A stretch of DNA of 64,000 nt. Source: Nitrospinales bacterium. Its GTDB lineage: Bacteria; Nitrospinota; Nitrospinia; Nitrospinales; VA-1. The position numbers and the translations under genes are program-made. Shown piece after piece: positions 46,412-54,747 of this stretch. Location of the stretch: contig OZ253496.1 in assembly GCA_965262115.1 (NCBI GenBank), positions 1,835,054 through 1,899,053 of the forward strand, given 5' to 3'. The notes under the pieces were generated by a model that had not been told where the DNA came from, did no database searches, and saw only the letters and a list, made by a program, of their open reading frames with translations. Each line of letters starts with the position of its first letter. Within the stretch, counting starts at the first letter, position 1.

Positions 46412-46756
46412 CTAACCCGGCGGCCAGTTCATGGCGCGACCGCCTAAAAGATGATAATGAATATGATACACCGACTGCCCGGCCCCGGCACCACAATTGA
46501 CCACCAACCGAAACCCTGATTTATCGAGGCCCCTTTCCTTCGCCAGTTGGTTTGCCACACTGATCACCGAACCCATCAACGTATGATCCTTCTCCTCGAC
46601 ATCCAGCAAGGTAGCCTGATGGATTCGAGGGATGATCAGGATATGCGTAGGAGCTTGCGGGTTAATATCATTGATCGCGAACAAGGCGTCCGATTCATAA
46701 ACCTTATCTGAAGAGATGGTCCCCTCGCTGATTTTGCAGAACAGGCAATCACTCAT
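46412..46756 (-). CDS. HIT-family (histidine triad) nucleotide hydrolase
   Basis: CLFCKI and the triad HIHYHLLGG. The start overlaps the pafA stop by 8 nt. Confidence 0.92.
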   Translation of the reverse strand: MSDCLFCKISEGTISSDKVYESDALFAINDINPQAPTHILIIPRIHQATLLDVEEKDHTLMGSVISVANQLAKERGLDKSGFRLVVNCGAGAGQSVYHIHYHLLGGRAMNWPPG

Positions 46757-48251
46757 AAGGTTTTTTTCCGCGTCGCTCCGGGTTTCCTATATCCTGTTTA
46801 TTTTCCTGGTGGGGCAGAGAATCAAACTGCTCAAGATGCTCTATAATTTCTTCTTTATAGGAGATAAATGGATCGAGCATCAGAAACGGTTCGTCAGTTT
46901 TACTCAGGCGAAATCCGATCCAGTCTATGAGATAACCCATGTGGGAATGCTGGTTCATGAGCCTTTTAACAAGCTCTCCCCGGCCATGCGCACGGGTTCC
47001 TCTTGGAGGATTGACTTTTGAGAAGTCGACAGCCTCATCGGTAGTTTTGCGGTAACCATCGCCACTGGCTTCCAATCCCCAGAACAAACCGGTTTCCTTA
47101 TTCAGGTTATGGTATTCCAGATCCAGGCTTTTGAGCCAGGGGTCATGCCATTCCAGGTTTTCTTCGTTTCTAAACTCGTTGAGCATCCAATACTTGCTGG
47201 CCCAGTCCACTCGGCCGATCACCGCTTCCGGTCCTTTAGGTAAATCGGCCAAGACCGATTCCCAGCCCTCCAGAATCCAGCCGGTCTCCCGATTTGTCCC
47301 GGCCAGATGTTCCTTACAGGTATTTAAAATATCCCATTGCAGCTCCAGAGCGGTGGAAGATTTTCCCGAAGCCAGCTTCACCTCCCATTTAAAATCCGGA
47401 TCGCGGGAAATGGAACGCATGGCAAAAACCGAGTCCGCAAGAATCCATTCCCGTTTGGCGACGCCCAACTGCATGATTTCCAGCATGAGGGTTGTGGTTC
47501 CCATTTTCATGGCGGTGGCAAACTCACTCATCGTCGAGTCACCAACCAAAAGATGAATGCGCCGGTATTTGCTCGGGTCCGACAATGGCTCGTCGCGGGT
47601 ATTGACAATCGCCCGGTTATATTGCACCCACCGGTAAAATTCATTGGGAATATGGTCAGCCCTTTGTGACAGCTGAAAGTTCACCTCATCGCCCTGGTTT
47701 TCATAAGGCGTGATGCCATCCCAATCCCGAAACGGGTGGGGATCGCAGGAACCGATGCGGCCCGCACCGCAATAAATCAGTCGAGTGGTTAAAAAGGAAG
47801 AAAGCAGTTTCAGGTTGTCGCGCTCATCGAAAGGGAATCCTCTACTGACCAGATAATTCTCGTGGCAGCCGAACGTCGCGCTGGTTTCAAGATCCACATT
47901 GTTCTTGATGAACGAAACATGATCGGCCCAGCCCAACTCCTCTACCGCTTCCTGAATCAGCGTGTCGCCGGCGCGGTCAAAAGTCACCAGGTCAACAAGA
48001 TTGGAACATTCCGGAGAGGCGTATTCCAAATGCCCCATGTCGAGATACAAGCGCCCACCGTTAAGCAGAAACCCGCCGTTACCGGGGGGCTCATCGTTAG
48101 CGCGGTAGTGAAGGTCCAGCACACCATGATTTTTTGAGAAAACATGGTTCTTGACCTTGTTGGCCACTTCCATGGAATCGAGAGGGAACTCTGTATCATT
48201 TTTGATCAGCAGGCCGTATTCCGTTTCGATACCGTAGATGCGCTTTTTCAT
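46749..48251 (-). CDS. pafA: Pup/UBact ligase PafA homolog
   Basis: IYGIETEYGL and NGGRLYLDMGHLEYASPE match the PafA pattern GIETEFG / NGARLYLDVGSHPEYATAE (from memory) better than the Dop pattern. Confidence 0.85.
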   Translation of the reverse strand: MKKRIYGIETEYGLLIKNDTEFPLDSMEVANKVKNHVFSKNHGVLDLHYRANDEPPGNGGFLLNGGRLYLDMGHLEYASPECSNLVDLVTFDRAGDTLIQEAVEELGWADHVSFIKNNVDLETSATFGCHENYLVSRGFPFDERDNLKLLSSFLTTRLIYCGAGRIGSCDPHPFRDWDGITPYENQGDEVNFQLSQRADHIPNEFYRWVQYNRAIVNTRDEPLSDPSKYRRIHLLVGDSTMSEFATAMKMGTTTLMLEIMQLGVAKREWILADSVFAMRSISRDPDFKWEVKLASGKSSTALELQWDILNTCKEHLAGTNRETGWILEGWESVLADLPKGPEAVIGRVDWASKYWMLNEFRNEENLEWHDPWLKSLDLEYHNLNKETGLFWGLEASGDGYRKTTDEAVDFSKVNPPRGTRAHGRGELVKRLMNQHSHMGYLIDWIGFRLSKTDEPFLMLDPFISYKEEIIEHLEQFDSLPHQENKQDIGNPERRGKKPYE

Positions 48252-48270
48252 TTCAGGGTGCCTTTTATAT

Positions 48271-49071
48271 TTAACCTCTCTTAAGAGAGGATTTACATAG
48301 TTTCGCCAGATCCTTATCGTTCAAAAACTGGTACCCCGCCTCGGTGACCAATGCCACGGTAGGAAAAATTTCATCTTCCGGACGGGCTTTGCCGGTTGCA
48401 GAATCAAACTGTGCCGCAGTCTGCAAAAGCCGGATGGCCAAGGTGACCGCATCGCTTTCCGACCTTTCTACCAGAGGCTTTTCTCCCCAGAGGTCTTCAT
48501 GTTCCAGAATTCCCCGAATGGTCGGCGAACCAGAGCCGGTCGCGGTATGGGTGCTGATCCTGAAATCGGCTCCCAACATATCGTAAAAATGTATCGCCGC
48601 CTTTTTAGATTTCAAATCATAAGTGGCAAATATAGGACTCACCGCGCCCAACCCCTGCACCGCCATCCCGACATTCTCTTTCAGCAGTTTTGATAAGGCG
48701 CGGATTTTCCCTTCCACACTCATGGTCTGCATCTGCGACCGCCGGTAGTATTCAAAATTATGCGTGAGAACCCGTGCCATCTCGAAAGCCGTAGCAGGAA
48801 CCCCGGCAATCGCCATGAGCGTATAATCGTCGATGGGAATGACCTTGTCGCAACGTTCATACATGATACTGTTGCCCGCCGTGGCCCGTCGGTCCCCGGC
48901 AACAATCACGCCATTCCTAAAGTGGAAGGCGAGAACCGTGGTGCCCTGCGTTACTGCAATGCCGCTTGGCGCCTGCGAAGAATCAATGCGGGTATGCCAG
49001 CGATAGCCGGATTTTTCCAGTAGCTCGAAAAAATCTCCGGGCGAAGTATGAGGATCTGTTTGAAAACTCAT
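48271..49071 (-). CDS. prcB: Proteasome beta subunit with propeptide
   Basis: A propeptide is followed by ..TQG/TTVLAFHF (Thr1 after Gly), then GDRRAT.G and IAGVPA. The start ATG overlaps the stop of the small upstream ORF (ATGA). Confidence 0.9.
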   Translation of the reverse strand: MSFQTDPHTSPGDFFELLEKSGYRWHTRIDSSQAPSGIAVTQGTTVLAFHFRNGVIVAGDRRATAGNSIMYERCDKVIPIDDYTLMAIAGVPATAFEMARVLTHNFEYYRRSQMQTMSVEGKIRALSKLLKENVGMAVQGLGAVSPIFATYDLKSKKAAIHFYDMLGADFRISTHTATGSGSPTIRGILEHEDLWGEKPLVERSESDAVTLAIRLLQTAAQFDSATGKARPEDEIFPTVALVTEAGYQFLNDKDLAKLCKSSLKRG

Positions 49072-49244
49072 TGACCGGTTCTCTGTTTGTATTTTTCAGA
49101 TTGTTTCGGGTCCACCTTTTTCATCCGCTTCAAAAGATTATCCTTTCCCGGCCGTGAAGGTTCCGGGCTGGAAGGGCCGGAATCATCGCGATCTGGACTG
49201 GTTTCTTTTTTTTCTTCCCTTCTCAGGGGATCATTCATTTCCAT
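49068..49244 (-). CDS. Pup-like prokaryotic ubiquitin-like modifier (UBact-type), 58 aa, absent from the ORF track
   Basis: My translation of the minus strand is MEMNDPLRREEKKETSPDRDDSGPSSPEPSRPGKDNLLKRMKKVDPKQSEKYKQRTGQ. AAAGGAG lies 8 nt upstream. It ends in Gly-Gln like Pup (..YVQKGGQ) and shares the D.LL..h..V...Y.Q..GQ pattern. It sits between prcA and prcB, with its stop overlapping the prcB start. Confidence 0.8.
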   Translation of the reverse strand: MEMNDPLRREEKKETSPDRDDSGPSSPEPSRPGKDNLLKRMKKVDPKQSEKYKQRTGQ

Positions 49245-49294
49245 GGGATCAACTCCTTTTGTTGCCAGGCCGTTTCTGCCTCTTCACCCGAGCA

Positions 49295-50029
49295 TTAACC
49301 GACCGATGATTTTAACTTACCAATATCTTCTTTCGTAAGCGCTCTGTAAATGGCTCTTCGCTCCACCTTTCCCGATAACACGGCGGCCTCAAGATACCAT
49401 TGATCAAAAGCCTCTTTCAAAGTCTTGGGCATATTTTCATCGTCTTCTTCCTGCTTTCTACTTTCATCCCAAAGGTGGCAGGTTTCCTTTAAAGCTTTAT
49501 TCAGCGGAAACGTCGCAAAGGGGGTATCCTGAATTTTTTTCTGCACCTCCTCCATGACTTTTTCATTACCGGCGATAACGGTTCCATTTTTAAATGTTTC
49601 CCAATGTCCATCATAGTTCACACGAAAAAAGTGAGGATGGCCATCACCGTCCAGTTCAGCAAGAAGAAGGCGAATGATATAAGGAGCCCGTTGGATTTCC
49701 TCAAAATTCTGTTTGAGTGCGGGAGCGATGCCAAACTGCAGCAACCTTGCCAATGTCACATCTTGAGCCGAACGGTTGAATCCTTCCAGATGCGCCATAT
49801 CCAAAAGCGTCATGCGCAGCCGTTCCACATCAGCAGGGTGACCCACGCCGCCCAGGGCGATGCGGTCATAGACTTCGAATATTTTTCCCGGCTGGGGAGC
49901 AAACCCCATAATCAGCACCCCTTCATTGAAAGGAACCGACAATACCGGCTGACCCATTTTCAGCTTTTCCTGAACATAACTGTGGCGGGTGGAAACCGCT
50001 TCCATCCAGCGATACGGCTCTTCAAACAT
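49295..50029 (-). CDS. prcA: Proteasome alpha subunit
   Basis: The Ntn-fold layout lacks a Thr1 site. KIFEVYDRIALGGVG and FFRVNYDGHW parallel actinobacterial PrcA (ISELYDRVGFAAAG, LYRITYDGS). Confidence 0.85.
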   Translation of the reverse strand: MFEEPYRWMEAVSTRHSYVQEKLKMGQPVLSVPFNEGVLIMGFAPQPGKIFEVYDRIALGGVGHPADVERLRMTLLDMAHLEGFNRSAQDVTLARLLQFGIAPALKQNFEEIQRAPYIIRLLLAELDGDGHPHFFRVNYDGHWETFKNGTVIAGNEKVMEEVQKKIQDTPFATFPLNKALKETCHLWDESRKQEEDDENMPKTLKEAFDQWYLEAAVLSGKVERRAIYRALTKEDIGKLKSSVG

Positions 50030-50113
50030 TTTTAACTGTCCCCTCTAGTCCCATAGCGAGTTTTCCCTTAAAATGAGGATACTTAAAAACCCCTTCACTC
50101 TTCCTCTGTTGTG

Positions 50114-51574
50114 CTAAACCAGTTGTTTGCTGGAGTTGAGAATCTCTTCAACCTCTTCGGAGCCAATGACTCCGGTCAAATCGAGAATCTCTCCGTTCAT
50201 AAACTCAACTCCGGTCCAATGAATGCTTTTTATTTTCTCCGCTCCTTGAGCCACCGCCTGCCCTCTTATCTGGGCACGGGTTCCTGTTGGAGGCGACTCA
50301 ACAGCCCGGGCGATTTCTTCTTCACTGAGCAGGGAATAAACATCCCCCTCCTGCTGCAATCCCAGATACAATCCGCGATCAGGGTCCAGATTATGGTATT
50401 CCAAATCCAGGCTCTTGAGCAAGGGGTCCTCCCAGCCAATGCCCTCGGACTGCATGAACCCGGTAAATAGTTTTTCCTTGATCGCCCAGTCGATGCGATC
50501 CGAAAGTTTTTCCGGACTGTGCCGAAGTTCATCCAGTGTCTTTTTCCATTCCGCAAGAATCCAGTCCCACTCGCGATCCTTTCCGGCAAAGGCTTTTTCT
50601 ACCGCCTCTAAATACGCTTCCTGAATCTCAAGAGCCGTGATAGTACCACTAGTCTTGCGACGTAAAACTGCAGTTTTGTCGAGAGACACTCTTAACACAT
50701 CGGCCACTGGGTCCGCCAATTCCAAATGGAGAAGTTTCTCCTCACGGGCGATCAGATTGAGAACCAGCGATGTACTCCCCACCTTCAGGGCCGTGGCATA
50801 AGCGGACATATTGGCATCGCCGAGAATTAAATGCAAACGCCGATACCGACTGCTCACCGCATGCGGTTCGTCCCGGGTATTGATGAGGGGACGCTTCGTC
50901 ATGGTCTCGATGCTTAAAACTGTCTCGATAAAGTCGGACCGCTGGGCCAACTGCAACCCCTGAAAATCACTAGCGTTTTCTGATCCCACTTTTCCTGCCC
51001 CGGCATACAACTGGCGCGTCACCAGAAAAGGAGCCAGCCCTTTTACCACATCTTCGAAGGGAGTTTCTCTGGGGATGAGATAGTTATCATGAGTTCCATA
51101 ACTATGGCCGCTGTAATCGGTATTATTTTTGAACACCTGAAGCGGTTTGCCCTCCAGCTCGCGGTTGCGAATGGCCACGCATTCGGCGACAATCCGCTCG
51201 CCCGCCACATCGTGCGCAACCAGAGATAACACCGACCGGCATTCCGGGGTGCTGTATTCTGGATGAGTATGATCATTATAAAACCGGGCACCATTTGTCA
51301 AAACCCGGTCGCACTTCATATCTAAATAAGAATAAGGCCTTTTACGATCTTCGGCGCAAAAGGCATCTTCTTCTTCATCCTGAGCCAAAGACCCCACCCG
51401 AAACCCACGCATATCCAGATGCGAGTTCTCCTGCGAGTAGGCCCATTTGCCAAACACGCTTTTGCGTTCGCAGGCCTTTAAAAGTTTCATGGACTCTTCA
51501 ACCGGGTCGGAATTTTCCATATCTTCCCGGACTATCCCATACTCGGTCTCCATACCCAGGAGAGAAACACTCAT
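50114..51574 (-). CDS. dop: Pup/UBact deamidase-depupylase Dop homolog
   Basis: LLGMETEYGI and VLTNGARFYNDHTHPEYSTPE match the Dop pattern ([21 protein letters not shown], from memory). It sits next to mpa as in actinobacteria, and its start overlaps the mpa stop. Confidence 0.85.
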   Translation of the reverse strand: MSVSLLGMETEYGIVREDMENSDPVEESMKLLKACERKSVFGKWAYSQENSHLDMRGFRVGSLAQDEEEDAFCAEDRKRPYSYLDMKCDRVLTNGARFYNDHTHPEYSTPECRSVLSLVAHDVAGERIVAECVAIRNRELEGKPLQVFKNNTDYSGHSYGTHDNYLIPRETPFEDVVKGLAPFLVTRQLYAGAGKVGSENASDFQGLQLAQRSDFIETVLSIETMTKRPLINTRDEPHAVSSRYRRLHLILGDANMSAYATALKVGSTSLVLNLIAREEKLLHLELADPVADVLRVSLDKTAVLRRKTSGTITALEIQEAYLEAVEKAFAGKDREWDWILAEWKKTLDELRHSPEKLSDRIDWAIKEKLFTGFMQSEGIGWEDPLLKSLDLEYHNLDPDRGLYLGLQQEGDVYSLLSEEEIARAVESPPTGTRAQIRGQAVAQGAEKIKSIHWTGVEFMNGEILDLTGVIGSEEVEEILNSSKQLV

Positions 51575-53187
51575 ATGATAGACCTGCGAATCGTGTTTTC
51601 GGTGGCCCTATCCGATTCTCTGGGCTTTCTCACCCGCACAACATTTTTTGATTCCATATCCAAAAGCTGAAGCCAGTCTTCCATATTGGATTCCGCAGGA
51701 AGCAGGTTGCCTTCCTCAAATTCAGCCTCCAGTGAAACAATAAGATCGTCCACTGTCATACACAGCGTTTCACCCTGAATCGCCCGTTCAATGGATCTCT
51801 CTTTAGCGCGTTTCATGATTCCCTCAATAACCGCACCGGAAATGAAATCGTTCCAGTACAGTTTTTTGGTGCCGCCGCTTCTTAAAGTCAACACCAGCAC
51901 TTCCTGTTCCGAACTGCGGTCAAACAGGCGATCCAGAAATGGTTCGGCCATGGCGTCAAAATCTTCATGTTCACGGGGCAATCCGTCTTTCAGGTAAACA
52001 CGCAGGATAGCTTTAGACTCTTCACGGTTGGGGCGCGACACTTTGATCTTTCTGTCAATTCTGCCGGGCCGGATGACAGCCGGGTCGATCAGGTCGGGCC
52101 GGTTGGTCGCCAGAATCACTACCGTTTCGCGAAGGGATTGGATGCCATCCATCTCCGCGCAAAACATGGGGACCACCGTGTTGCTGATGTTCGATCCGCG
52201 CCACGCCTGCCGGGTTCCCAGAATGGATTCCGCTTCATCTATAAATATGAAAGGAATCTGACCTTTTTCTTTATAGTCCCGGGCTTTCTTAAAAATTTCA
52301 CGGATTTTACGTTCCGATTCCCCCAGCCACATATTGAGGATCTCCGGTCCTTTGACATGAATAAACCGGCCCTGCAGTTCGGAATTTTCCTGCTCGGAAA
52401 GTTTGCGGATCACTTCGGTGAGAATCGCTTTTCCTATGAGAGTTTTTCCGCAACCCGGAGGACCATAAAACAAAAACCCTTTGGGCACCTGATATTCCAT
52501 CTGGCTCAGAATTTCTTTGTGCAGGAGCGGATATTCGAGGACTTTGCGCACCTCTTCTTTTACTTTTTCCTGTCCGCCCACCTGTGACCATTCCACATGT
52601 TCATAATCATCTTCGACCAGAGTGCGGGACTCGCGTTTAGAAAGTTTTCCTAAAATAACCCTTTGGTTACTGTCGAGAAAAATTTCTTCCCCCTCTTTCA
52701 GCCCGGTTTCATCCAGACCCTCTCGGACCAAAACAATCGTCTCGGTATTGCCGGTCGCCGCCTGCACCAGCCATTGCCCACCGGCAAGCTTTCCGGAAAT
52801 TTTTGCTAGTGCCCCCTGAGTGGGAAAAGGTAGTAGGGCAATCACCACAAATCCTTCATTGAGCGCGACCTGATCACCGGTTTTCAATCCCTCATTTTCC
52901 GTAAGTTCCGGGACGACCGCAGCCTGGTATTCCGTGCCTCCGGAAACCAGACGCACCAGACCGTCCTCCCCCTGACCAAGAATCGTGCCGATGCGATGGG
53001 CGGGAGACTTTAACTTTTCAATGGCTTCCTCCAAGGTCTTGATTTTCAACGCATACTGCTGGGCAGACTGCTGGGCCTGAAACATGGCATCCCTGAGATC
53101 AAGAATTTTTTCCTGCAATTGGGGTCGATCCTGGGTTTCATTTAAAACCTGGTCGATCAACTCTACAATATGGGTCGGGTCTCCCAT
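51571..53187 (-). CDS. mpa: Proteasome-associated AAA+ ATPase (ARC/Mpa family)
   Basis: N-terminal coiled coil, OB-like region, Walker A GPPGCGKT, Walker B FIFIDEAE, and the second region of homology. The C-terminus reads ...TIRRSII, with no Tyr-containing HbYX/GQYL tail. Confidence 0.9.
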   Translation of the reverse strand: MGDPTHIVELIDQVLNETQDRPQLQEKILDLRDAMFQAQQSAQQYALKIKTLEEAIEKLKSPAHRIGTILGQGEDGLVRLVSGGTEYQAAVVPELTENEGLKTGDQVALNEGFVVIALLPFPTQGALAKISGKLAGGQWLVQAATGNTETIVLVREGLDETGLKEGEEIFLDSNQRVILGKLSKRESRTLVEDDYEHVEWSQVGGQEKVKEEVRKVLEYPLLHKEILSQMEYQVPKGFLFYGPPGCGKTLIGKAILTEVIRKLSEQENSELQGRFIHVKGPEILNMWLGESERKIREIFKKARDYKEKGQIPFIFIDEAESILGTRQAWRGSNISNTVVPMFCAEMDGIQSLRETVVILATNRPDLIDPAVIRPGRIDRKIKVSRPNREESKAILRVYLKDGLPREHEDFDAMAEPFLDRLFDRSSEQEVLVLTLRSGGTKKLYWNDFISGAVIEGIMKRAKERSIERAIQGETLCMTVDDLIVSLEAEFEEGNLLPAESNMEDWLQLLDMESKNVVRVRKPRESDRATENTIRRSII

Positions 53188-53436
53188 GAATAAGTCCTTT
53201 ATTTTGGTTGTGAACTCAATTGTATGAACAAAAAATTTTATAAATCAAGTCAATTTTCTCAAAGGTTTAGTAGAGAAAACCTTGTCATTATATTAGGATG
53301 GAAGCTTCTATTGATTATTGTCCTGAAAAACTTTCGCTCAAATTTTTCGTATTCCCACAGAGCCCGGCATAATCCCAAGTGGCACCAAGACCACCTTTAA
53401 CACGAAAGTGATTTCTGACAACAAGTTTTTGATTCT

Positions 53437-54747
53437 ATGACCTTTGCGAACAACAAAACCCCTATCGAAAAATGCATCATCAGTTTCAGCCATAACAAAT
53501 ATTCCACCCGTAAAGAAGCCGATGCGGTGAGCCTTGCCAAGGCAGAACGTGAAATTGCCGCTGGGAAAAATGGCATCAGCCATCTTCTTCTAAGAGCTGA
53601 GGATGACGACATTGATCGACTGAAATTTCTTTTTTTGATCCGGGGAATTCCTATCATGTGTTACGCGCTGGGGAACCTAATGAACTCCGGCTTGCGCGAA
53701 ATCGTGGTCGTCGGCTCTGAGGAAGTCAAAAAAGTTATGGACCGCTTCCTCGACATTGTTGGCACCTGCGGAAAAACCATCCGGTTTGTCCGGGAAGATA
53801 CCCAACACCTCAATCTGGTCCACACCATGAATCTGGGCCGGGAGTTGCTCTCTCCTTCACCCGATGAACTGGTTCTGTTCCAACCCGGCGACCTGCCTTT
53901 CCTGTACGATTTGGAAAAAGTATTGTGCTTGCCCGACAACAAAAAATATAACCTGGTGCTCTGGTTGAACTCCCGACAAACGATGTTCCCGGATTTTGCA
54001 AAGAATCCGGACAGTGAATTTGTCAAACGCAATTACCATTACCGCTCTTTCAGCGAAAATGAAGCCAGCCTGCTGGATCTTAAAGAACCTAACTTATATC
54101 CCATTAACTTTGCAATGATGGATTCGGATATCATTGACCGCCTGCACTCTTCCCGCAAGGACGGACAAATAATTCACGCGGGCATCCAAATCGCTTTGCA
54201 AAAACCCTTACGCTTACTCAAAGTTCTGCCTTATGTCATGGACCATCTGTTGACGTTCCGAATAAATGTAAACCGTATCAGACCCGGCGACCGGTATCAT
54301 TTCGGCATGTCCCGAAAAAATTTCCATAAAGGTATCTCCCGCTTGCTCAATACTCCCCTGACCACCACGTTGCACGACGACCCGGCTTTCGTTTCCGATG
54401 TCGATGCATTGGAAGATTGGGAAGATTTTGAGTCTCTCACCCATCATGCGGAAAAAACCCATGGCCAGGAGGGACTGGAGACCATCCACCCGTTTGGACA
54501 ATCCCTGACCCGGTTTCGTGAAAAGGGCATGCCTCAGTTGAAAACAGAGATTCCCATGTATCGGGATTTTCCTTCCTACCTCAACTCTATTTATGAAACG
54601 CTCAAGATGGGTTATGTGCCCTTTGACAGGGACAACCAATACATCTCGCCCAACGCGAACTTGAAAGAAGTGGGGTTCGCATACCACTGGTATAAACAAA
54701 AATGTGCACGTCTGAAACAAACTCATGAGAACCGACAACAGGCCTGA
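53437..54747 (+). CDS. Hypothetical protein with an N-terminal MobA-like nucleotidyltransferase-fold region
   Basis: IRGIPIMCYALGNLMNSGLREIVVVGSEEV...LFQPGDLPFL resembles NTP_transf_3/MobA-like proteins, but the G-rich LAGG..R loop reads LLLRAEDDDIDR. The C-terminal 250 aa are unassigned. Confidence 0.5.
   Translation: MTFANNKTPIEKCIISFSHNKYSTRKEADAVSLAKAEREIAAGKNGISHLLLRAEDDDIDRLKFLFLIRGIPIMCYALGNLMNSGLREIVVVGSEEVKKVMDRFLDIVGTCGKTIRFVREDTQHLNLVHTMNLGRELLSPSPDELVLFQPGDLPFLYDLEKVLCLPDNKKYNLVLWLNSRQTMFPDFAKNPDSEFVKRNYHYRSFSENEASLLDLKEPNLYPINFAMMDSDIIDRLHSSRKDGQIIHAGIQIALQKPLRLLKVLPYVMDHLLTFRINVNRIRPGDRYHFGMSRKNFHKGISRLLNTPLTTTLHDDPAFVSDVDALEDWEDFESLTHHAEKTHGQEGLETIHPFGQSLTRFREKGMPQLKTEIPMYRDFPSYLNSIYETLKMGYVPFDRDNQYISPNANLKEVGFAYHWYKQKCARLKQTHENRQQA

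Follow-up and report, generated by a model that had tools for sequence, protein, structure and literature searches.

The locus analyzed here raises the question of whether the spacer between prcA and prcB, the two 20S proteasome subunit genes of a Nitrospinales bacterium, encodes a protein of its own and, if so, whether this protein is a modifier of the kind known from actinobacterial Pup. The window, by which we mean the whole stretch of DNA that was analyzed (64,000 nucleotides), had been given a sequence-only reading, which placed in this spacer a minus-strand open reading frame (ORF) of 58 amino acids, preceded by AAAGGAG and 8 nt and running into prcB through an ATGA overlap, and which took its product for a Pup-like modifier of the UBact type, encoded between proteasome subunits and near a Dop homolog. 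The ORF and its signals are found in the sequence exactly as stated, and the assignments of the product and of the neighboring genes are borne out by the comparisons reported below, while the likeness to Pup itself stands in part.

A gene in the prcA-prcB spacer

The ORF belongs to a run of six genes on the same (minus) strand, 46749..53187, which code for an Mpa-like ATPase, a Dop homolog, PrcA, UBact, PrcB, and a presumed PafA and show ATGA overlaps (Table 1). Its product is MEMNDPLRREEKKETSPDRDDSGPSSPEPSRPGKDNLLKRMKKVDPKQSEKYKQRTGQ (58 aa), and the 8 nt separating its ATG from the Shine-Dalgarno sequence read TTGATCCC. Among 10 related loci, the AGGAG core, the 8-nt distance, and the ATG show no variation, whereas the remainder of the 50-nt spacer drifts, and the invariance of these elements fixes the start codon. 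At its other end, the overlap with prcB, which recurs in many Nitrospinota loci (the end of UBact being the start of PrcB), likely leads to translational coupling. Scanning for promoters and terminators returned consensus-level matches only, with the best promoter-like site at 53262..53235, 5' of the ATPase gene, and nothing convincing directly before UBact.

Table 1. Features of the proteasome gene cluster, in window coordinates.
Feature	Coordinates	Strand	Basis or remark
Mpa/ARC-type proteasomal AAA ATPase, 538 aa	51571..53187	minus	AAA, Prot_ATP_ID_OB_N/C; N-terminal coiled coil, two OB domains
Dop-type deamidase/depupylase homolog, 486 aa	50114..51574	minus	Dop scores, Dop-loop, Dop-specific motifs
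20S proteasome alpha subunit PrcA, divergent, 244 aa	49295..50029	minus	PF00227, 31.8 bits
Shine-Dalgarno sequence AAAGGAG	49253..49259	minus	8 nt 5' of the UBact ATG
UBact gene	49068..49244	minus	ATG start; 58 aa + stop; PF20513 and NF033388 matches, purifying selection
ATGA stop/start overlap, UBact TGA (49070..49068) with prcB ATG	49068..49071	minus	
20S proteasome beta subunit PrcB, 266 aa	48271..49071	minus	PF00227, 102 bits; TIGR03690, 162.6 bits
Second Pup-ligase-family paralog, presumed PafA-type ligase, 500 aa	46749..48251	minus	PF03136, 419.6 bits; no Dop-loop

Both curated models of the UBact family match the product above cut-off. PF20513 (UBact) scores 71.8 bits (cut-off, 27.8), with residues 17 to 58 aligned to profile positions 2 to 43 of 43, and NF033388 (ubiquitin-like protein UBact; NCBIfam equivalog) scores 73.8 bits (cut-off, 35), with residues 9 to 58 aligned to positions 5 to 54 of 54. 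A conservation check, which the sequence-only reading had suggested, shows that the 58-codon frame is kept in 26 Nitrospinota loci, with pN/pS values between 0.00 and 0.35 and pS of up to 0.6 to 0.98 (near-saturated); across these loci the C-terminal half is more constrained (pN/pS = 0.10) than the N-terminal half (pN/pS = 0.21). When the window UBact is compared to the loci L007 and L008, all of the 13 nucleotide differences are synonymous, with flanks that are ~88% identical. It might be held that the ORF is an untranslated chance frame in the prcA-prcB spacer, given that it falls below the 60-aa default of ORF lists and that its exact sequence is named "hypothetical protein" in some sources. 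We consider the probability of this to be negligible in view of the above-cut-off HMM matches, the substitution pattern at near-saturated synonymous sites, the invariant Shine-Dalgarno sequence and start, and the presence of relatives in at least 555 species-level genomes; a spurious ORF is ruled out by the HMM scores, the purifying selection, and the conserved Shine-Dalgarno sequence. The ORF is thus a true gene under purifying selection and a member of the UBact family, one that is missed by default ORF lists and yet was found and named from sequence alone.

The UBact family and its partner proteins

Gene calls on at least 21 public contigs give the identical UBact protein; among these contigs are one of 2.86 Mb and LFLA01000021.1 of Nitrospina sp. 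LS_NOB, the nearest genome. Its 90% identity cluster has 72 members, several of them named "ubiquitin-like protein UBact" from Nitrospinota or Nitrospinaceae, and PF20513 is present in all 173 of the word-index homologs, of which those that carry a name are UBact from Nitrospinota. The 80 best genome loci are nearly all from Nitrospinota or Nitrospirota, two being unclassified "uncultured bacterium" records, and when 1.84 billion representatives were scanned in full with HMMER, 104 relatives were recovered at E <= 0.001. This is therefore an already described, database-annotated family (Pfam, NCBIfam, and NCBI annotation), and the gene is not a new finding. The Pup-like UBact system occurs in Nitrospinota, Nitrospirota, and further Gram-negative phyla, in line with the sequence-only reading. 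UBact was reportedly described on bioinformatic grounds by Lehmann, Udasin, Livneh, and Ciechanover in 2017 (BBRC 483:946). That description is cited in PMC12751074 and PMC5751360.

Conservation in the family is strong over the C-terminal 25 to 30 residues, with the consensus ...GP..P.V..P....LLKRMRKVDP.QA.RYRQRTGQ, and Y52, Q54, R55, and G57 are invariant in an alignment of 43 diverse members. The family end is Y.QR[TS]G[QE], and the window protein closes with KYKQRTGQ followed directly by the stop codon. G[QE] closes 92 of the 104 representatives. Counted by last residue, 63 of the 104 have Gln and 32 have Glu, and near relatives show a stronger preference for Gln (128 Gln, 6 Glu). The window protein shares with the family the GP..P..(S/K)(R/K)P segment, the D.LLKRM+KVDP.Q helix, the Y.QR[TS]G[QE] end, and the typical size. 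It is a typical member, since its only departure from the family consensus is KYKQ in place of RYRQ, and Lys for Arg is itself typical of Nitrospinota.

With respect to structure, AlphaFold2 (43-sequence alignment) leaves residues 1 to 33 without secondary structure (pLDDT ~50) and places helices at residues 34 to 44 and 46 to 56, with a break at Asp-Pro and a pLDDT of 72 to 91 in the C-terminal half. The N-terminal part (residues 1 to 33) is rich in Pro, Ser, and acidic residues, both C-terminal helices are basic, and the C terminus is R-T-G-Q. UBact is thus predicted to consist of a disordered N-terminal half and two C-terminal helices, as the sequence-only reading had anticipated in describing a low-complexity N-half and a helix in the C-half. 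This prediction agrees with the disorder-to-helix behavior of Pup (PMC6466877). Single-sequence and profile searches of the PDB found no solved structure of UBact or of a relative.

The same six-gene set accompanies UBact in 57 of the 80 genome loci, these being the loci long enough to show all six. All five partner proteins of the window score below the NCBIfam equivalog cut-offs, which are actinobacterial, and this is expected, since the system is divergent. The ATPase reaches 383 bits with TIGR03689 (cut-off, 504.75), and its residues 19 to 521 align to Mpa of Mycobacterium tuberculosis (7px9). It ends in a conserved ...RRSII; the tail is of the RSII/GQII type and is without the actinobacterial GxYx docking tail. 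For the proteasome subunits, the sequence-only reading had named both neighbors of UBact correctly. PrcA, although its score with TIGR03691 (59 bits) is below cut-off, has as its best PDB matches the Rhodococcus alpha-1 subunit and M. tuberculosis PrcA, and PrcB, recognized by PF00227 and TIGR03690, has a propeptide and the G-TTVLAF motif with the catalytic Thr (Thr1).

Two paralogs of the Pup ligase family are encoded in the cluster. The longer-looped one, located two genes upstream of UBact and already named a Dop homolog in the earlier reading, scores 428 bits with the Dop model TIGR03688 (below the 492.3 equivalog cut-off) versus 352 bits with PafA, and against solved structures it scores 318 bits with Dop versus 243 bits with PafA. 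It has ~30 extra residues at the site of the Dop-loop (80 residues between ETEYG and NGARFY versus 50 in its paralog) and carries NDHT..EYSTPE motifs, that is, the Dop-specific His and Ser-Thr-Pro. These correspond to the Dop-specific residues by the catalytic Asp (D-H and S-[AT]-P) given in Table 1 of PMC7947786, and by its sequence features this protein is clearly Dop-like. The assignment of the paralog at the end of the cluster is less sharp, with PafA (TIGR03686) at 318.5 bits versus Dop at 303 bits, a slight margin between two scores that are both below cut-off. In the PDB it scores 237 bits with Dop versus 221 bits with PafA, but its alignment is full-length only to PafA (4b0t), that to Dop breaking at the Dop-loop. 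Its L-D-M-G (where Dop has D-H; the Gly is at the position of PafA Gly59) and E-Y-A are PafA-like, whereas the third-position Pro is Dop-like, and in the alpha-loop only the His is common with the PafA motif H.WEG.SSA..RS; the other PafA-type residues used in this comparison are L-D-x-G-S and A-T-A.

Relation to Pup and proposed function

Direct comparisons lend no statistical support to homology with Pup. The Pfam Pup model (PF05639), which that reading had named as a check, gives no match to the window UBact at E <= 1, BLASTP of UBact against Pup gives no alignment at E <= 100, and no Pup chain is retrieved from the PDB with the UBact profile. Aligning the UBact and Pup profiles with hhalign gives a nonsignificant result (E = 0.17; probability, 0.4%), with a best path that is colinear to both C termini and has a 4-residue gap (RPGKDNLLKRMKKVDPKQSE----KYKQRTGQ versus TEETDDLLDEIDDVLEENAEDFVRAYVQKGGQ). 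Direct homology to Pup was rejected as a candidate on these nonsignificant BLASTP, Pfam, and hhalign results, and at the level of the sequences the homology of UBact and Pup is not statistically demonstrable. The Mycobacterium Pup sequence that the earlier reading had given is accurate (98 to 100% identical to database Pup), and the sub-motifs D.LL..h..V and Y.Q..GQ that it recognized are indeed common to the two proteins. The shared spacing that it had read into them, D.LL..h..V........Y.Q..GQ, is not, since 11 residues lead from V to Y in Mycobacterium Pup and 7 in UBact.

Beyond these sub-motifs, Pup and UBact are both small, disordered proteins whose C-terminal half forms helices and whose chain ends in Gly-Gln/Glu; both alternate between Q and E at the last residue, and both are encoded beside Dop, PafA, Mpa/ARC, and PrcBA. 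They differ in the terminus, which is GG[QE] in all 113 Pup matches (105 GGQ, 8 GGE) and [TS]G[QE] in UBact (TGQ here), and in the net charge, which is -6 to -9 in Pup (last 28 residues, 113 sequences) and +3 to +7 in UBact (last 25 residues, 92 representatives; +6 here). The basic helix and the TG in place of GG, both pointed out before, are thus confirmed for this protein, and the inverted charge, like the altered terminus, is shared across the family. Furthermore, a Pro breaks the helix of UBact at VDP, unlike in Pup. Given the opposite charge of the helices, the binding of UBact cannot be a simple copy of the Pup-PafA or Pup-Mpa contacts. We inspected the N-terminal 70 residues of the ATPase by eye and see no clear acidic excess in its predicted coil that would complement the basic tag.

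The possibility that a different, bona fide Pup gene is present, which the sequence-only reading had allowed for, was addressed within the 64-kb window. M. tuberculosis Pup was searched with phmmer against all 1884 six-frame segments that are 20 aa or longer, and no match was better than E = 2; of the 14 window segments that end in G[QE], the UBact ORF alone is similar to Pup or UBact. This six-frame search and the scan of G[QE] ends rule out that the window holds a separate, canonical Pup gene.

By analogy with actinobacteria, UBact is very probably a Pup-like protein modifier that would be deamidated by Dop, ligated to lysine by PafA, and delivered to the ATPase-proteasome. In the actinobacterial cycle, Dop deamidates Pup, PafA ligates the gamma-carboxylate of the resulting Glu to lysine via an acyl-phosphate, the coiled coil of the ATPase recognizes the tag, whose disordered N terminus is threaded, and Dop removes the tag (PMC3511204; PMC6466877); the Q/E alternation of Pup is explained by Dop deamidation and ligation via the terminal Glu (PMC3511204). 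Conjugation is experimental for Pup, which has been co-expressed with PafA in E. coli (PMC7947786), whereas for UBact we infer it, along with deamidation, lysine ligation, ATPase recognition, and degradation, from actinobacterial Pup. What argues for a Pup-like cycle is that the terminal Gly-Gln/Glu is exact, that Q and E alternate, and that a Dop-like and a loop-less paralog are always present.

In the cycle that we propose, UBact would be synthesized with a C-terminal Gln, which the Dop homolog would convert to Glu. The PafA-type paralog would then phosphorylate the gamma-carboxylate of this terminal Glu and join it to the epsilon-amino group of target lysines. The basic helices (residues 34 to 56) may fold when they bind the groove of the ligase or deamidase and the coiled coil of the Mpa-like ATPase, and the disordered N-terminal half, on entering the pore of the ATPase, would initiate unfolding into the 20S core formed by PrcA and PrcB. 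Removal of the UBact tag would also fall to Dop.

Two other readings of the protein have to be weighed against this one. UBact could be a proteasome accessory peptide that is never conjugated, acting as an assembly factor, as a regulator of the gate or the ATPase, or as an adaptor whose basic helices dock onto acidic surfaces, in which case its coupling to prcB would reflect stoichiometric co-assembly and not tagging. The ATGA overlap conserved in many loci, the Pup homology that goes undetected by sequence searches, and the charge opposite to that of Pup would all suit such a peptide, and so would the literature searched, in which we found citations of the 2017 bioinformatic description only and no experimental conjugation of UBact. 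We nevertheless regard this reading as unlikely, because the R-[TS]-G-[QE] end is (nearly) invariant and the chain always stops precisely at this point, with a free terminal Gln or Glu, which is what a gamma-glutamyl ligase or an amidase acts on. In addition, the alternation of Q and E mirrors that of Pup, and the two ligase-family paralogs, of which one has Dop features and the other lacks the Dop-loop, are always present and would otherwise be left without a substrate.

According to the other reading, the protein is a true but divergent member of the Pup family (PF05639) in a locus acquired by horizontal transfer, and "UBact" is a matter of naming. Horizontal transfer of the Pup pathway to Nitrospirae and Nitrospinae has been proposed (PMC7947786; PMC3511204), and the identical set of enzymes and locus composition, the colinear hhalign path that reaches both C termini, and the two common sub-motifs are in keeping with it. 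Against it stand the failure of PF05639, BLASTP, and hhalign to connect the two proteins, the TG[QE] instead of GG[QE] end, the 4-residue difference in length between the motifs, and the inverted charge, as well as the fact that Pfam and NCBIfam keep separate models, and we hold membership in the Pup family to be very improbable.

The reading of UBact as a Pup-like modifier bears on more than this locus. Nitrospina and Nitrospira are key nitrite oxidizers, and a demonstrated UBact conjugation would reveal a regulation of protein turnover in both, and the basic tag could be used to label proteins orthogonally to Pup. The gene fits the family described in 2017 and the locus itself raises no new question; whether UBact is conjugated and what the charge inversion means are questions for the whole family and not for this locus.

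Gene order in Nitrospinaceae

The only local peculiarity is the gene order. The window and its close relatives share the order Mpa-Dop-PrcA-UBact-PrcB-PafA, with UBact between prcA and prcB, whereas 49 other loci, among them all Nitrospirota and the more distant Nitrospinota, show Mpa-Dop-UBact-PrcB-PrcA-PafA, with UBact between dop and prcB; in this Nitrospinaceae clade, prcA has come to lie upstream of UBact. This rearrangement is observed, as are the inverted charge and the different tail of the ATPase. UBact might be a charge-inverted counterpart of Pup whose basic two-helix C terminus is read by co-evolved, orthogonal surfaces on PafA, Dop, and the ATPase, with docking of the ATPase on the 20S core through a non-GxYx tail (RSII/GQII) and with a locus reshaped in this clade by tandem duplication and losses; we rate this possibility as somewhat doubtful, and both its orthogonality and its pathway of duplication are conjectural.

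A third arrangement, Mpa-Dop-PrcB'-PrcA-UBact-PrcB-PafA, is seen in three related genomes (L013, L015, and L039). These gene orders fit a plausible, if conjectural, scheme in which UBact-PrcB-PrcA was duplicated in tandem and genes were then lost step by step. PrcB', a second beta subunit, is intact, with Thr1, the GDRR motif, and Lys33 retained, and is 50 to 56% identical to PrcB.

Terminal residue of UBact

The 58-aa Pup-like tag protein UBact ends in Glu instead of Gln in 6 of the 134 near-identical Nitrospinota sequences. Since five of these six Glu-ending sequences otherwise match the last 25 residues of the window protein, with only the final residue excepted, the Q/E state switches between very close relatives through a single CAA/GAA change.

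Gene order, beta-subunit paralogues and operon extent

The locus comparison shows the order Mpa-Dop-UBact-PrcB-PrcA-PafA in all Nitrospirota loci and in the other Nitrospinota, and a rearranged order, Mpa-Dop-PrcA-UBact-PrcB-PafA, in the Nitrospinaceae clade to which the window belongs, with prcA placed upstream of UBact (window 48271..50029; related loci L009-L039). Some sister genomes carry in addition a second beta-subunit paralogue, PrcB', which is 50-56% identical to PrcB and retains the catalytic Thr1, Asp17 and Lys33 motifs. The presence of this extra intact gene between dop and prcA suggests that UBact-prcB-prcA was duplicated in tandem and that losses came afterwards; the organisms carrying it possibly form mixed beta rings. 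With respect to transcription and translation, the overlaps at the Mpa/Dop, UBact/PrcB and PafA/HIT junctions suggest that the cluster is a single translationally coupled operon that extends into the HIT hydrolase gene.

Features of the proteasome cluster, its flanks and related loci
Feature	Location	Strand	Remark
PrcB'	L015:5363-6103; L039:5402-6160; L013:2-277		between dop and prcA; extra intact beta-subunit paralogue
Mpa/Dop overlap	window 51571..51574		ATGA
UBact/PrcB overlap	window 49068..49071		ATGA
Presumed PafA gene	window 46749..48251		
PafA/HIT-family gene overlap	window 46749..46756		8 nt
HIT hydrolase gene	window 46412..46756		adjoins and overlaps PafA gene
436-aa ORF	window 53437..54747	+	divergent from ATPase gene
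Mpa-like ATPase C-terminus	window 51571..51600		tail ...RRSII

Presumed ligase, divergent neighbour and ATPase tail

The presumed PafA obtains nearly equal model scores for PafA (318.5 bits) and Dop (303 bits), and against solved structures it scores slightly higher with Dop (237 bits) than with PafA (221 bits). It does not have the Dop-loop, and its alpha-loop region has only the His in common with PafA. We infer that the product is a ligase.

The divergent 436-aa ORF has no Pfam match on record, and its nucleotidyltransferase-domain matches are sub-threshold only (NTP_transf_3, 19.9 bits, cut-off 27); it is kept as a neighbour in loci L001-L007. The C-terminal tail of the Mpa-like ATPase is conserved across about 60 loci, where Nitrospinota have RS[IVM]I and Nitrospirota have [GN]QII; it is unlike the GxYx docking motif given for actinobacterial Mpa (PMC6466877, Table 1).
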